A stretch of 64,000 nucleotides of DNA. It comes from an uncultured Planctomycetia bacterium (GTDB lineage: Bacteria; Omnitrophota; Gorgyraeia; Taenaricolales; CAZCCH01). Below, one piece after another: positions 1,137 through 64,000 of this stretch. The notes beneath the pieces were generated by a model. The model made no database searches and was not told the DNA's origin. It was given only the letters and a program-made list of their open reading frames with translations. Location of the stretch: contig CAZCCH010000001.1 of NCBI GenBank assembly GCA_964497315.1, positions 56,106 to 120,105 of the forward strand, given 5' to 3'. The position numbers and the translations under genes are program-made. Position 1 is the first letter of the stretch. Every line of letters begins with the position of its first letter.

Positions 1137-2284
1137 TTTTTCATACTCCTAATTTTTCTTTTTATGCTCAATGCAAAATTTAAAAGCTTTTTTAATAATG
1201 ATTGTTTAAATTCTATAGCATTGCTAGGACATAATTCATGACAGCAGTAACAACATATGCACTTAGAATAATTTATCTTACATGATGAATCTGTTATGGT
1301 TATAGCATTTACTGGACAAGCTTTTGCGCAAGTCTGGCACCTCGTGCATTTTTGTTTGTTTACTTTGGGGTATAGCTTCATGGCTTTTCCAAAAAGCCAT
1401 AATAAAGACCCTGACAACTGAAGCATTACTGAAGGCTTAGGTAGGGAAAACCCAGGCATTTTTACACCTACTATCTCTTCCCCTAATACCTCAATATCTT
1501 CTGGGGTTGCTACACCCAATTTTCTCTCATGACCTATTTTTATTGTAGGCACACTAAATGGCGAAATATCTACAAGTTGTGCAAAAACAGAATCTAGCGC
1601 TATTGCATCTTTACTTGATAATATCAAACCTATACTCTTGAGCTTGCCTCCTGCTGGACCGTCGCCTTCCATACCCACAACCGCATCCATAATGGTTAGT
1701 TGTGGCTTAACATGTGAAAATATATCTACCAATTGAGAAGAAAAACTCACTGGATCTGAAAATTTAAGGTGTAAGCTTAATTTATGCCCACCAACAACTG
1801 CCCCAAACATATTTTTCACACCACCTGTTAAAACTGTAAGATTGTGGGTTTTCATCTTAGGGGCAGATATTATATAATCTACCTCTTTTAAGGCTTTGGC
1901 AATTGGGATCCCGTCTATCTGCACAACCTGGCTAAACCTTATAAGCTTAACATCCTCTTCCTTGCATAGTCTTTCTATGCCTGAGGCTTTATAAATCTCA
2001 TCTATATCCTTATCTGAAAAACACGAAGGGCTATCCCCTACTAGAATTTCTGCCTGTACTTCTTTTAAGATAGTAATTATCGCTCTGATAACCTCAGGAT
2101 GTGTAGTTACGCCCTCTTCTGGCCTCCTTGCTGAAAGGATATTTGGTTTTATTAAAACCCTCTGCCCAGGCGCTATAGAGTCAGATACACCACCTATTAA
2201 ATCAATAGATCTTCTTACAGCGGTTAAGATATTGGTTGGGTTATAGTCCTGGCATTTTATAATTGATACCTGCGTCTTCTTCAT
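1118..2284 (-). CDS. DUF362-type iron-sulfur protein with a C-terminal 2x[4Fe-4S] ferredoxin domain
   Basis: 388 aa. C-terminal CTRCQTCAKACP and CICCYCCHELCP are ferredoxin-type cysteine motifs. The N-terminal region resembles DUF362. Confidence 0.55.
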   Translation of the reverse strand: MKKTQVSIIKCQDYNPTNILTAVRRSIDLIGGVSDSIAPGQRVLIKPNILSARRPEEGVTTHPEVIRAIITILKEVQAEILVGDSPSCFSDKDIDEIYKASGIERLCKEEDVKLIRFSQVVQIDGIPIAKALKEVDYIISAPKMKTHNLTVLTGGVKNMFGAVVGGHKLSLHLKFSDPVSFSSQLVDIFSHVKPQLTIMDAVVGMEGDGPAGGKLKSIGLILSSKDAIALDSVFAQLVDISPFSVPTIKIGHERKLGVATPEDIEVLGEEIVGVKMPGFSLPKPSVMLQLSGSLLWLFGKAMKLYPKVNKQKCTRCQTCAKACPVNAITITDSSCKINYSKCICCYCCHELCPSNAIEFKQSLLKKLLNFALSIKRKIRSMKKCPSQQ

Positions 2285-3408
2285 GCAATTGTCTTGAGTA
2301 GCTGTTTAAATATAAATATAAATGAAACCGTTAGACTGTTATGTAAAATATGTACAGTAAAAGAAGGAATTAGAGAACCTGTTTTCTCATATAAAAACCC
2401 GAGTAAAATACCCAGTACCAGAATAGGAAAAAATCCTACCACATCTGCATGCAACCATGCAAATAGCACTGCTACTACTAAAAGGGAGGCCTTAACCCCT
2501 AGCTTGCCCCTTATGGCTTTATAGGTAAATCCCCTAAAAAATATCTCCTCTGCCAGTGGGCCCATAATAGAAACAAACACAGTCATATAAAACAAGACCT
2601 TTGGGTTTGTTTGCCTTAAAAATAAACCTACTACAGGTTGAACCGGTGGTCTCCAGCCAATTAACTCAATCACCCAAACAACCCCAAACAGGACGATTGC
2701 CAAAATTGGCAAGATTGCAATATAGCCTAAGAATCCGATTAAAATATTCCTGCCCCAATCCTTTAAAGACAAACCTACCTCAGAGATTTTCTGGCCATAC
2801 TTTTTTATAACAAAACATACCACAAGTCCTATTATCAAAATATCCGAAAAGGAAGTATGAAAAAGCATTCTGATATCTTCGCTTAATGGCCTAACCCCAA
2901 ATATTTTTTTAAAAAATATTTCTCCTAAAGATAGCAAGTGACCAAAGAAAAACAAAGTTATAACTACCTTTGCAACATCTAAAAAATCCCACTTGGAAGT
3001 CTTGTGCTTGTGGGTAGGCTTAATAAGTTCTCTGCCTTTAGACCTTAAATAGACATAAACTATCAATAAAATTACACCACTGGCTAAGCCACACATAATT
3101 AGAATACTAAGAAAACTTACAATCGCACCAAGGGCTGGACGCTGTTCTAAAAAGCGCTTTACCTCATCAGGAGAAGAAAATTTTTCCTTAAGTTTGTCCT
3201 GTAAGGCTGTTAATTCCTTTGTTGCCTCAACCTCTGGCGTTGCAGCAATCGAAGTTACCTTTTCTAGTTTATGAGATAATCCTGCTATGAGATTGCAAAT
3301 TATCATAAATGCAATCATCAGAAGGTATATCTTTTCTTTTTTGATAAAATCCTTTACTTTTAGCATTTGAAATTTAGGTAAGGGGGGACATCTTGCGCAA
3401 TTTCTCAA
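2281..3408 (-). CDS. Membrane protein with a C-terminal CPBP (CAAX/Abi) intramembrane metalloprotease domain
   Basis: 375 aa, multi-TM. The EEIFFRGF ... FAWLHAD motifs are typical of CPBP family proteases. Confidence 0.55.
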   Translation of the reverse strand: MRNCARCPPLPKFQMLKVKDFIKKEKIYLLMIAFMIICNLIAGLSHKLEKVTSIAATPEVEATKELTALQDKLKEKFSSPDEVKRFLEQRPALGAIVSFLSILIMCGLASGVILLIVYVYLRSKGRELIKPTHKHKTSKWDFLDVAKVVITLFFFGHLLSLGEIFFKKIFGVRPLSEDIRMLFHTSFSDILIIGLVVCFVIKKYGQKISEVGLSLKDWGRNILIGFLGYIAILPILAIVLFGVVWVIELIGWRPPVQPVVGLFLRQTNPKVLFYMTVFVSIMGPLAEEIFFRGFTYKAIRGKLGVKASLLVVAVLFAWLHADVVGFFPILVLGILLGFLYEKTGSLIPSFTVHILHNSLTVSFIFIFKQLLKTIA

Positions 3409-60547: not shown

Positions 60548-61402
60548 CTATCCTATTTTTGCAGCTAATGCCTCTAGCTTTGCAACCCTCTGTTCTACTG
60601 GTGGGTGCGTGCTAAACAATCGTGCCATACCGCCACCTGTTAGGGGATTAACGATAAACATGTGTGCAGTAGCAGGAGATGCTTTTTGCATTGGAGTTCT
60701 TTGTGAGCTAAGGTGTAGTTTGCGCAAGGCATTTGCTAATCCTTGGGGTTTACCACAAAATCTTCCGCCTTTTTCATCTGCCCTGAATTCCCCGGCACGA
60801 GATATTGCAAGTTGAATTAATATTGCTGCAATTGGTGCAACTATGGCAACAAGTAAAAGCCCTAATGCGCTGCCACCGCGCCTATCCCTTCCTCCGAATC
60901 CTCCAAAAATTGCAGTCCATCTAGCCATGTTGGCTAACATAAATATCGCACCGGCAATTGTTGCAGCAATGCTACCTATTAAAATGTCCCTGTTTTTCAC
61001 ATGAGCCAATTCATGCGCTAGGACACCTTCTAGCTCATCTTCATTTAGAAGTTGTAGAACCCCTTCTGTTACAGCCACTGCAGCATGATTTGGATTGCGT
61101 CCTGTAGCAAATGCGTTTGGAGCTTGGGTTGGGACTATATAAATTTTAGGCATGGGCAAGCTTGCCTTTTGTGTAAGCTCGCGGACTATTCTAAAAACAG
61201 CAGGGATTTCTGCTTCTTTGGCTTCTTGTGCTTTATACATCATAAGCACTATTCTGTCTGAAAACCAAAAACTGGTGAAATTTAACACCAAGGCAAATGT
61301 AAAGGCTATCATCATTCCGCCTCTGCCGCCAATCATGCCTCCAACCCAAACAAGCAAAAGTGTCAATGCGGTTAAAAGAACCATTGTTTTAAATATATTC
61401 AT
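60548..61402 (-). CDS. htpX: Zinc metalloprotease HtpX (M48)
   Basis: 284 aa. [10 protein letters not shown] zinc motif and 4 TM helices. Confidence 0.85.
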
Positions 61403-61609
61403 TTTCCTATCCCCCCTGACTACGCAAGTAGCATCAAAGCTTTCTATTTATAAAACTGGCGTCTCCACCCTGACTCCTTCAACGCGGACAAATTATTGTC
61501 TCTGTGGGAATGCATTTTCCGTTTCCCCCTATTATATCAGATAATAATTCCCTGTAAAGCTCCATTTTGAATACATGGCAAAGTAAAATACTTGGTTTTC
61601 AAAATCAGC

Positions 61610-61629
61610 AATACTACTTATAAGTAGTA
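61610..61629. repeat. 20-bp perfect palindrome ATACTACTTATAAGTAGTAT (copy 1), 18 bp downstream of the HTH gene stop
   Basis: Self-complementary over all 20 nt. An identical copy is at 62905..62924. Confidence 0.9.
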
Positions 61630-61646
61630 TACAAAATTTTATAACT

Positions 61647-62165
61647 TTATTTTAGCGCAACAACTAATTTTTTATCAAAGGCATCCGCTATCCGCTTAAG
61701 AGTGCCTATTGAAATATTCTCGCGACCGCTTTCAATCTTAGAAATATACTGCTGAATTACGCCTAATTTTTTCGCTAGCTCTTTTTGTGTGTACCCCAGC
61801 TTTATGCGTATGTCTCTGATTTGGCCAGCTAATGCTGCTCTTTCTGGTGGAATTTTTGTTCTTTGGGGCACCTGTCTTATTGCCACCCCCTTTTCTTTTA
61901 AAACCTCAAGGCGGCGTTCATGCATAGCTTGCCAAAAAACTATCTTGTTTTTAAGCCAGCGATCTCTTGCTAACCTTTTCTTTATGCCTGGCCAGCTTTT
62001 ACAAAAAACTACTTCATCGATGTAGCCAAAAACTACCGTAGGATCCGAAACCCTGGACAAAAGCTTCGCTGCGTACATTTCGAATTTCGGATGTTTTGCA
62101 TTTTTTAAAATGGCTCGCGCCTCTTTTTTGCTCAATTTACTATCCCACAACCAATTAGTTTTCAT
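61647..62165 (-). CDS. XRE-family HTH protein (C-terminal HTH), putative antitoxin or regulator of the adjacent nucleotidyltransferase gene
   Basis: 172 aa. C-terminal YTQKELAKKLGVIQQYISKIESGRENISIGTLKRIADAF is an XRE HTH. The N-terminal ~100 aa are unassigned. Confidence 0.5.
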   Translation of the reverse strand: MKTNWLWDSKLSKKEARAILKNAKHPKFEMYAAKLLSRVSDPTVVFGYIDEVVFCKSWPGIKKRLARDRWLKNKIVFWQAMHERRLEVLKEKGVAIRQVPQRTKIPPERAALAGQIRDIRIKLGYTQKELAKKLGVIQQYISKIESGRENISIGTLKRIADAFDKKLVVALK

Positions 62166-62175
62166 TTTTTCAACC

Positions 62176-62874
62176 TCACGTCATTAGTTTATCCGGTAAC
62201 TTCTTTAAAATTTCATCATCAAGATGTTTTAAAATTTTTGCCGTATCAACTTTTGCAACTAAATCCAACAACTCAAGTTTTAGTTCCATTCTGTTAAAAC
62301 TTTTAAACCAGCCAATCAAACGCTCTGCTTTATCGTAAGAAAAATACTCAAAGAAAAAATCTGACACGGGCTTATAGTGTTTAGATAAATAATAAACATC
62401 GAATAGATCCTTTGCCGTCTGGCGACCCGTAGCCATAACATCTCCGGTGATACTTCTTTTTTCCTGGAACCCCATGGTTGCAGTAAGCTTTCTGAAATAG
62501 ATATCTTCTATAGAGTGAAGTCCATTTCTTACCCTCTTGATGTTTTCTTGAAAATCCTGAACGAAGTCTATTTTTAAAACATTGTTTTTCTCTAGTTGCA
62601 AAAAATAGACTTTCATGGGTATTAATTCAGGATCATTCTGTTCGGCTTCAAGTTTAAAATCAAAACCTGTCTTTTTTGAAACAAATTTCATTATTCGTTC
62701 AGGGTTTTTCTGTTTATGCTTTTGGCTGAAAAAATCCAAATCTTCAGAAAATCTATGGTTAAAATAAAAAGATAGAGCTGTGCCTCCTGTCAAATAATAG
62801 GTCTTAAAGTTTTCTGTTACTGTCTTTGATATTCTTCTCTGCTGCTTTTTAATATAGGCGATTTCGCTTTTCAT
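62176..62874 (-). CDS. Nucleotidyltransferase of the AbiEii/AbiGii toxin family (DUF1814-like)
   Basis: 232 aa. GGTALSFYFNHRFSEDLDFF matches the AbiEii Pol-beta-type NTase motif (GG.A..... hR.S.DlDf). Confidence 0.55.
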   Translation of the reverse strand: MKSEIAYIKKQQRRISKTVTENFKTYYLTGGTALSFYFNHRFSEDLDFFSQKHKQKNPERIMKFVSKKTGFDFKLEAEQNDPELIPMKVYFLQLEKNNVLKIDFVQDFQENIKRVRNGLHSIEDIYFRKLTATMGFQEKRSITGDVMATGRQTAKDLFDVYYLSKHYKPVSDFFFEYFSYDKAERLIGWFKSFNRMELKLELLDLVAKVDTAKILKHLDDEILKKLPDKLMT

Positions 62875-62904
62875 TGACTTCTCCTTTTATCTCTACTATA
62901 AATT

Positions 62905-62924
62905 ATACTACTTATAAGTAGTAT
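62905..62924. repeat. 20-bp perfect palindrome ATACTACTTATAAGTAGTAT (copy 2), 30 bp upstream of the nucleotidyltransferase gene start; a putative operator
   Basis: Identical to the copy at 61610..61629. Together they bracket the two-gene cassette. Confidence 0.9.
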
Positions 62925-62943
62925 TGTCAAGCAAAATAATGGC

Positions 62944-62957
62944 GTCCCCACGGGGAC
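62944..62957 (-). terminator. Possible intrinsic terminator of the integrase gene (GUCCCCGUGGGGAC hairpin + weak U-rich tail)
   Basis: The palindrome GTCCCCACGGGGAC lies ~100 nt downstream of the integrase stop and is followed in minus sense by GCCAUUAUUUUGCUUG. Confidence 0.35.
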
Positions 62958-63060
62958 TTGAATTCATTTGAGCTCATTATAGCACTTTCACCACCAAAAG
63001 TCACCACCAAAATTACCCCGTCATTGCGAGGAGCGCAGCGACGAAGCAATCTCCAGTCCA

Positions 63061-64000
63061 TCATTTCCCACCTCCCATCAGCTTGCTCTGTTCAATTACC
63101 TGTTTTGTGCCCTCGCTTGTGCTGTGGGCATAGATCTTGAATGAATCTATGTCTTTATGGCCTGTTACGGCCATGATATCGCGCTCTGCGTGGCCTTCTC
63201 TCAACATCCTGGTACAGAATGAGTGCCGGAACTCATGAGGGGTCAGCTGTTTGCCTATTATTTTCTCAGATACTCTCTTGATGTACTCTGTGTAATGGCC
63301 GCCATGAATGATATTGCCGTCTCTATTGGGAAAAAGCCATTGAGTTTTTCTTCTGTCAAAGGCATATCGCTTAATAATCCTGGCAAACTCTTCGTCTATG
63401 TCGCGGTATATGAATGGCTCGTTGGTTTTAGTGTCCTGCGGCTCAATTAATATCTCAACCGGCTTTAAACCGAGCCATTTGATATTGTGTCTTTTAATAG
63501 ATAAAGCTTGTGTTCTTCTCCAGCCAAATCGCATAATAATATATGTCGGGCCATAGTAATCAGGCCTGTCTTTCTTTATAAAGTTAAGCAATGATAGCAT
63601 TTCATTACGCGTGATTTCTTTATATCCTCTCCTGCGGCCCTTTGGCTTTTTGAATTTAGCAAATACTTCTGTCTGAATCACGCTATCGCAGCATCCGATA
63701 GCCACTAACTTGTTAAACATTGTCTTCAGTTTACCCAATTCCTCTCTCCATCCATTAACCCTGCCTTGCTCGACGACAACCCATTGCTTGTATTCTTCTA
63801 TAATATTGCTTGTGATTTGATTTGCACCTGTTAAATCCGGGCGCTTGGCAGGCAAAAACTTCTCAAAGAAGTTACGGAATACAGACCTGGTATTCTTAAG
63901 CGTCTTTGCCCTGACATTATCTGCTTTCAGCTTTACCTCTAATTTCTCCCAAAGCTCAGAAAAAGAAGGTGTATCTTCGCTTTTAGAATGAGGGCCCCCG
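63061..64000 (-). CDS. Tyrosine recombinase/integrase (phage integrase family), 5'-partial: the reading frame is open to the window edge
   Basis: C-terminal catalytic motifs HEFRHSFCTRMLREGHAERDIMAVTGHKDIDSFKIYAHS (R...HxxR...Y). The frame upstream of the listed start (actually TTG) remains open for another 48 codons to position 64000. Confidence 0.8.
   Translation of the reverse strand, partial: GGPHSKSEDTPSFSELWEKLEVKLKADNVRAKTLKNTRSVFRNFFEKFLPAKRPDLTGANQITSNIIEEYKQWVVVEQGRVNGWREELGKLKTMFNKLVAIGCCDSVIQTEVFAKFKKPKGRRRGYKEITRNEMLSLLNFIKKDRPDYYGPTYIIMRFGWRRTQALSIKRHNIKWLGLKPVEILIEPQDTKTNEPFIYRDIDEEFARIIKRYAFDRRKTQWLFPNRDGNIIHGGHYTEYIKRVSEKIIGKQLTPHEFRHSFCTRMLREGHAERDIMAVTGHKDIDSFKIYAHSTSEGTKQVIEQSKLMGGGK

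Follow-up and report, generated by a model that had tools for sequence, protein, structure and literature searches.

Near the right edge of the 64,000-nt stretch of contig CAZCCH010000001.1 analyzed here (the window; an uncultured bacterium of the Omnitrophota), a self-complementary 20-mer, ATACTACTTATAAGTAGTAT, is found as exact copies at 61611-61630 and 62905-62924 only. No further match with up to 3 mismatches was detected in the 64 kb, and none in 100 shuffles. The two copies enclose a gene for an AbiEii/DUF1814 nucleotidyltransferase (NTase) and a gene for a protein with an XRE-type helix-turn-helix (HTH) domain, referred to below as the partner, and a gene for a tyrosine integrase adjoins this unit. 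All the genes here are carried on the minus strand. An earlier note on this DNA had described the two copies as bracketing the NTase and HTH genes, and an exact search of the window agrees. The upstream copy lies 30 nt from the ATG of the NTase gene (62874), the distance given in that note, and the downstream copy lies 16 nt after the partner stop codon (61647-61649) rather than 18 bp past the gene. The flanking nucleotides lengthen the copies to a 23-nt perfect inverted repeat (CA+palindrome+A versus T+palindrome+TG). The features of the two-gene unit, hereafter the cassette, are as follows.

62902..62930, minus strand: sigma-70 promoter of the cassette, TTGACA-17 nt-TATAAT, matching the consensus at 12 of 12 positions (promoter call, same architecture in relatives)
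62905..62924, no strand assigned: predicted operator O1, a 20-bp perfect palindrome (sequence, family conservation)
62176..62874, minus strand: DUF1814/AbiEii-family NTase, 232 aa, putative toxin (PF08843, motifs, AF2 fold)
61647..62165, minus strand: partner, 172 aa, with a helical N-terminal domain (N-domain, aa 1 to ~100) and a C-terminal XRE HTH, putative antitoxin/autorepressor (HTH_3)
61611..61630, no strand assigned: O2, the second exact palindrome, 1,294 bp from O1 (lineage specific)

The partner gene starts 10 nt after the NTase stop codon. The GC content of the cassette is slightly low, 0.34 to 0.39 versus ~0.38 to 0.46 in the neighboring genes, and a search of Rfam at E values up to 10 across 61400-63200 returned chance-level matches only.

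Analysis of the first gene product supports the previous assignment to the AbiEii/AbiGii-type NTases. The PF08843 (AbiEii) profile matches aa 24 to 220 with 55.8 bits against a gathering cutoff of 22.5 (E 8e-15), and 13 PADLOC AbiEii models match as well. DUF1814 proteins share motifs I/II, hG[G/S]x(9-15)DhD with the motif II Arg, the basic residues of motif III, and +DxxD as motif IV (Dy et al. 2014, PMC3985639). The corresponding positions in the NTase are T29-G30-G31-x13-D45-L-D47 with R41, R128-K129, and K155-D156-L-F-D159; across 24 to 25 homologs, each of the four motifs is either invariant or conserved to at least 90%. The earlier note had allowed that the catalytic aspartates might be missing; D45 and D47 are both present and conserved. 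The AF2 model has a pLDDT of 84, and its top Foldseek matches in the PDB are all DUF1814 proteins: 4ok0 (JHP933), 8an4 (MenT1), 6j7p (MenT3/TglT), 6j7s, and 7c46. In the alignment, S43 falls on the phospho-acceptor positions of AbiEii (T65) and MenT1 (T39). By analogy with these relatives, the NTase would inhibit growth by adding nucleotides to tRNA 3′ ends. Both it and the partner have hundreds of homologs at 60 to 70% identity, mostly labeled Omnitrophota.

The second gene product is built as previously described, an XRE-HTH protein with an unassigned N-terminal domain of ~100 aa. HTH_3 matches at aa 116 to 167, and aa 1 to 105 have no Pfam assignment. The C-terminal HTH resembles those of HipB, C-proteins, and the 434 repressor. 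Residues 1 to 100 have no sequence relative in the PDB and none in Pfam; in the structural model, they are predicted to form a compact, confidently folded domain without relatives. The N-domain family is small, with 124 clusters among 1.84 billion representatives. Profile searches for both halves of the AbiE system gave a split outcome, the NTase matching AbiEii and the partner showing no AbiEi signature in Pfam, NCBIfam, or PADLOC. The region just upstream of the NTase gene contains the promoter and a tRNA fragment only, with no AbiEi/COG5340 gene. Longer members of the partner family also carry Mrr_cat, TPR, and PIN domains C-terminal to the HTH. In two cases, L131:788-3966 and L132:770-5088, such giant partners (N-domain, HTH, Mrr_cat nuclease, TPR, and PIN; 822 to 1,195 aa) come immediately after an AbiEii gene, which they overlap by 4 nt, and show the operator-in-promoter design, with ACAAC...GTTGT palindromes.

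The two genes are found together with marked regularity. Every NTase of at least ~35% full-length identity with enough downstream sequence has the partner immediately downstream, giving 29 complete pairs, and among these loci no NTase of the clade lacks it. In contrast, the partner is found without the NTase at two loci: at L028:5883-6518 a solo partner gene follows the palindrome and converges with a Fic gene, and at L024:5621-7096 the partner gene lies behind the palindrome and a Gp49/HigB-like plus HigA-like gene pair. This asymmetry and the tight coupling of the genes are as predicted for a toxin-antidote pair such as a type II or VII toxin-antitoxin module, in which the toxin is never alone whereas orphan antidotes may occur. 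A separate arrangement was seen at L057:679-2745, where two partner homologs (679-1194 and 2293-2745) flank one NTase (1608-2267), suggesting tandem cassettes on one contig.

The upstream palindrome copy, O1, fills the spacer of the minus-strand promoter (62930..62902) and the first three bases of its −10 element. This means that a protein bound there would exclude RNA polymerase. Since O1 lies upstream of the transcription start, it is not transcribed from its own promoter, and a role as an RNA hairpin in the cassette mRNA is impossible. The position is conserved in relatives. In a sample of cassettes picked by protein similarity, all close members (at least 52% identity) have the site at the same place with at most 4 mismatches and with TTGACA...TATAAT or TATACT. 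Related cassettes, ~38 in all, spread over several candidate phyla and with protein identity down to 36%, show the same design: TTGACA, 0 to 2 nt, palindrome, and TATAAT or TATACT. For instance, L007, from another genome, has an NTase 67% identical to ours and the identical 20-mer at the same promoter position with no integrase, in a different neighborhood (rmuC/tRNA-Pro/cassette/acylphosphatase, ligA). Palindromes of altered sequence, such as ATACAACTTATAAGTTGTAT and ATACTAGTTATAACTAGTAT, occupy the same place in the distant L067, L061, L065, L057, L131, and L132. The recognition helix tracks the operator class, IQQY occurring with TACTAC (canonical) sites and SQQL/I with TACAAC sites.

Among 185,579 species genomes scanned, the exact 20-mer was found in only 29 stretches, ~1 per assembly and mostly at this same promoter position. 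About 18 of the 29 sit 20 to 45 nt upstream of a homologous NTase-HTH pair; one of these pairs, in L023, has proteins merely 36% and 42% identical to those of the window. At the start of a Clostridia contig (L026:31-50), the palindrome is part of a TTGACA-palindrome-TATTAT promoter followed by a ribosome-binding site (RBS) and ATG GAT AAG AA..., the gene being cut by the contig end. In a Bacillales metagenome-assembled genome (MAG; L022:4797-4816), the 20-mer is a coding coincidence, reading ILLISSI in a signal peptide, so that a few of the 29 matches are due to chance. Thus, the search for other copies that the earlier note had suggested found most of them in NTase-HTH promoters, and some before AAA ATPase genes or by chance. 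A literature search for the palindrome core gave no match. Given its promoter position and conservation, the palindrome is best read as an autoregulatory operator of the HTH protein, which the earlier note had offered as one of two options.

We consider it probable that the cassette is a toxin-first, two-gene module of the toxin-antitoxin (TA) kind, with an autoregulatory palindrome and with the N-domain as neutralizer. What the analysis shows is the anatomy of the cassette, its conservation, and the fold and motifs of the NTase; DNA binding by the partner, toxicity of the NTase, its neutralization, and its tRNA target are inferred. The near-perfect sigma-70 promoter would drive the NTase gene and then that of the partner. 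A dimer of the partner's XRE HTH would bind the 20-bp palindrome between the −35 and −10 elements and silence this strong promoter, which amounts to negative autoregulation. The N-domain would most likely act on the NTase by direct binding, either to block it or to trigger auto-phosphorylation at S43. Free NTase, judging by its homologs, would extend tRNA 3′ ends with nucleotides and halt translation. O2 would be an extra operator copy of this lineage, which may aid repression by looping or may be a leftover.

Several observations weigh against this proposal. First, the L024 partner, placed behind a HigB-like/HigA-like pair, fits a general regulator. Second, L023 is mixed, combining an SQQL helix with a canonical operator. 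Third, single-base changes in the operators are mostly confined to one arm (37, versus 7 symmetric changes), which overturned an early view of predominantly symmetric operator variation; the −10 element places a further constraint on the right arm. Fourth, the 20-mer also precedes AAA ATPase genes that lack a neighboring NTase or N-domain-HTH gene, and another protein may read it. Finally, no relative of known fold hints at a mechanism for the N-domain, and a scan of viral contigs found no relatives. The ATPase loci fall into two sets. In six Lachnospiraceae/Clostridia genomes (L016, L032, L034, L038, L041, and L043; palindrome at ~2100-3400 in each), the 20-mer is upstream of an ATPase_2+DUF234 gene and is flanked by a conserved extra half-site, ACTTTAAMGTAGT; in one Omnitrophota genome (L030:5747-5766), it is upstream of an AAA_14+DUF4143 gene. 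Two independent associations with the same rare gene type are unlikely to be due to chance.

Two accounts compete for O2: it may serve as an auxiliary operator, or it may have been left behind by recombination between promoter copies. A second operator is present in 7 to 8 of the 38 unique cassette loci, always 31 to 98 bp from the first and inside the promoter region. A copy after the operon (+1294) was found in the window lineage only, and none lies downstream in the ~37 other cassettes. It is quite conceivable, if somewhat short of probable, that a duplication, or recombination between two cassette promoters, left O2 as a relic with no function and that the promoter copy alone matters. Its restriction to a single lineage fits this view, as do its plus-strand flanks, which resemble a degraded promoter (TCAGCA-17 nt-TATACA), and an unremarkable RNA fold around it (z = −1.6). 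However, decay is expected of a neutral relic, and O2 is perfect at 20 of 20 positions and, counted as an inverted repeat, at 23 of 23. Two-operator control also recurs in the family, and in this cassette an auxiliary operator has no room upstream, the end of the tRNA fragment being 9 nt from the −35 element.

A second alternative leaves the operator in place and dispenses with neutralization. The HTH protein would be a sensor-repressor like CapH, BrxR, or the C-proteins of restriction-modification (R-M) systems, the NTase a defense effector kept silent until a signal releases the operator, with no protein-level antidote. The best PADLOC matches of the HTH part are indeed regulator families (HTH_VI, CapH, and control proteins). 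The same N-domain-HTH module precedes the Mrr-TPR-PIN effector domains, the partner follows a complete HigB-like/HigA-like pair in L024 and stands alone in L028, and the same operator lies before the AAA ATPase genes. Against these points, a constitutively active MenT-type toxin on a consensus promoter would be hard to tolerate with repression alone, and the obligate pairing, the close coupling (10 nt or a 4-nt overlap), and the absence of solo NTases are typical of toxin-antidote pairs. We regard the regulator-only account as unlikely but worth keeping in view.

A broader version of this idea, to which we give little credence, is that the N-domain-HTH protein and its palindrome form a portable, cross-phylum switch for conflict systems, serving NTase toxins, HigB-like toxins, COG1373/COG1672-type AAA ATPases, and Mrr-TPR-PIN effectors, possibly in trans. 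In such a switch, the N-domain would be a sensor of the DNA-releasing signal, and two operators would loop the cassette.

The repeats next to an integrase raise a further possibility, which concerns the following features around the cassette.

62940..62962, minus strand: tRNA 3′ fragment, 23 nt, 9 nt from the −35 element, probable att scar of the integrase element (read from the sequence)
62988..63013, no strand assigned: tandem 13-nt repeat TCACCACCAAAA(G/T), two units, between the integrase stop and the tRNA fragment (repeat search)
63061..64000, minus strand: tyrosine integrase, open to the window edge, outside the cassette (PF00589 at E 6e-18 and a SAM-like N-terminal domain)
61531..61558, minus strand: TG-extended, promoter-like site TTTACA-16 nt-TATAAT for htpX, a core gene downstream of the cassette (promoter call)

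The earlier note had suggested that the palindromes could be the ends of a mobile cassette. The 23-nt repeats would then be recombination sites, and a tyrosine recombinase would flip or move the 1.27-kb segment; inversion would split the −35 from the −10 element and act as an on/off switch. The layout is suggestive, with a perfect inverted repeat flanking the unit, the −35 element outside it and the −10 inside, and a tyrosine recombinase gene 136 nt away that matches Xer, integron, and invertase models weakly. However, the second copy is confined to this lineage, and the palindrome is found in the promoters of ~37 cassettes with no recombinase nearby, so that family-wide terminal inverted repeats of the transposon or miniature inverted-repeat transposable element (MITE) kind are not seen. 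No target-site duplication (TSD) was found flanking the inverted repeats. Seven contigs of this strain, from several samples, all contain O2 and show one orientation. They include a 1,320-bp contig that crosses the downstream copy and runs in normal orientation from the 3′ part of the NTase gene through the HTH gene to htpX, a content that ruled out its being an assembly break or inversion at the palindromes. Moreover, the tRNA fragment explains the integrase better, and we hold an invertible or mobile cassette to be very improbable. Lastly, although the palindrome is a perfect hairpin-former with one copy at the 3′ end of the operon, a generic REP-like repeat, which the earlier note had also considered, or an intrinsic terminator unrelated to the genes is scarcely tenable with two copies in 64 kb, about one per genome elsewhere and mostly in one promoter position, a promoter copy that its own promoter does not transcribe, and no T-tract terminator called at either copy.

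The integrase is 362 aa long in the full contig (L003). No integrase adjoins the other related cassettes examined, which places this gene outside the module. The adjacent open-frame integrase and the 13-nt tandem repeat of the earlier note were both recovered by the PF00589 and repeat searches; we would guess that the repeat supplies arm-type recombinase sites. Two terminator-like hairpins lie at 63031..63016 and 62957..62944, the latter being the stem of the tRNA fragment. This fragment, TTCAAGTCCCCGTGGGGACGCCA, is 9 nt upstream of the −35 element, unique in the window, and starts exactly at the T-loop (TTCAAGT), continuing with the T-stem CCCCG, the acceptor strand TGGGGAC, discriminator G, and CCA. 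We take it to be tRNA-Glu-like from the general form of bacterial tRNA-Glu 3′ ends. The fragment is not an intact tRNA, and neither an intact copy nor an att partner was found in the window or within 10 kb beyond; no att-like repeat of it was found within 3 kb downstream or 10 kb upstream. The fragment probably marks the integration site of the integrase element. Its location between the integrase and the cassette makes it reasonable that the window's right edge is the border of an integrated element, as had been suggested earlier, and by the same tRNA-att logic the cassette lies outside that element.

The downstream gene is htpX (HtpX by NCBIfam, E 2e-117). At the nearest htpX ortholog locus (77% identity), cutA is directly upstream and there is neither cassette nor integrase. 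This comparison with a relative lacking the integrase provides an empty counterpart, but the two loci are too diverged to set the insertion boundaries. In this nearest relative (L125:1-4211), gyrB and gyrA with intein insertions (Intein_splicing, HNH_3) lie just upstream of cutA-htpX. In the window, a GC-rich sequence at 63022-63051, CATTGCGAGGAGCGCAGCGACGAAGCAATC, is found once, just past the integrase stop and adjoining the tandem repeat; its translation is HCEERSDEAIS in one frame, with RLLRRCAPRND in the opposite one, and it may resemble a short element present in many metagenomic "hypothetical proteins."

Proximity to tRNA genes extends to other cassettes. In about 4 of 33 independent cassette lineages, a tRNA or tRNA fragment on the same strand lies no more than 500 nt upstream, where the background rate predicts ~0.1 to 0.2, and the cassette seems to travel with, or survive from, tRNA-targeting islands. 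At L046:2093-2443 (also in L042), an intact tRNA-Pro is followed by four tandem ~55-nt tRNA-Pro 3′ fragments with a period of 65 to 71 nt; the array, which looks like repeated integration at one tRNA, ends ~60 nt before the cassette promoter.

The cassette was compared with described systems. With AbiE (AbiEi-AbiEii; Lactococcus lactis, Streptococcus agalactiae), it shares the DUF1814 motifs I to IV and a bicistronic operon (PMC3985639). AbiE also has promoter inverted repeats bound by the partner for autorepression (PMC3985639), as is predicted here; the conserved palindrome inside the promoter strongly suggests negative autoregulation of the cassette. In contrast, AbiEi/COG5340 consists of an N-terminal winged HTH and a C-terminal antitoxicity domain, whereas the cassette partner is unrelated, with a C-terminal XRE HTH and a new helical N-domain, and the operator is a single 20-bp perfect palindrome in the promoter spacer. 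The gene order (NTase first) and domain order are thus the reverse of those of AbiE, as first noted, and by its sequence the cassette is not an AbiE member with respect to the antitoxin. AbiE and MenAT antitoxins have been reported to bind the toxin and induce its auto-phosphorylation (bioRxiv 10.64898/2026.01.19.700257), which makes the "type IV" label attached to the cassette in the earlier note a dated one. The abortive-infection role raised in that note would be a candidate function. The MenAT systems of Mycobacterium tuberculosis (MenT1, MenT3/TglT) share with the cassette the NTase fold (Foldseek matches 8an4 and 6j7p) and a Ser/Thr two residues before the first catalytic Asp, the phospho-acceptor position. 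However, their identity to the NTase is only 14 to 15%, and no MenA antitoxin is an XRE protein with such an N-domain.

Among toxin-first type II systems, HigBA and MqsRA have a two-domain antitoxin, the XRE HTH of which binds a palindrome overlapping the promoter, as is predicted for the cassette. MqsA consists of an N-terminal toxin-binding domain and a C-terminal HTH. The toxins of these systems are RNases, whereas the putative toxin of the cassette is an NTase, and the N-domain shows no relation to the MqsA zinc domain. The closest solved structure is JHP933 of Helicobacter pylori (PDB 4ok0/4o8s; E 6e-9, TM 0.62, 25% identity), a DUF1814 NTase in a variable genome region (PMC4125220), for which no such partner or regulatory site is described. 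The DUF1814 toxin family is already known to have diverse, unrelated antitoxins (PMC11375011), and in the literature searched no paper pairs AbiEii with an XRE partner. Judged by its genes, the cassette adds a third, undescribed type of putative partner for DUF1814 NTases, with reversed gene order.

DUF1814 NTases such as AbiEii and MenT are a major toxin family, and their control by unrelated antitoxins is an active question. The cassette is abundant in uncultivated phyla, e.g., Omnitrophota, Elusimicrobia, and Firestonebacteria, and would escape tools that depend on AbiEi. Its compact N-domain without relatives would make a good test of whether antitoxin-induced auto-phosphorylation generalizes. 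Finally, an operator that stays identical over 20 bp while the proteins diverge down to 36% identity is predicted to provide a ready-made repressor/operator pair on a consensus promoter.

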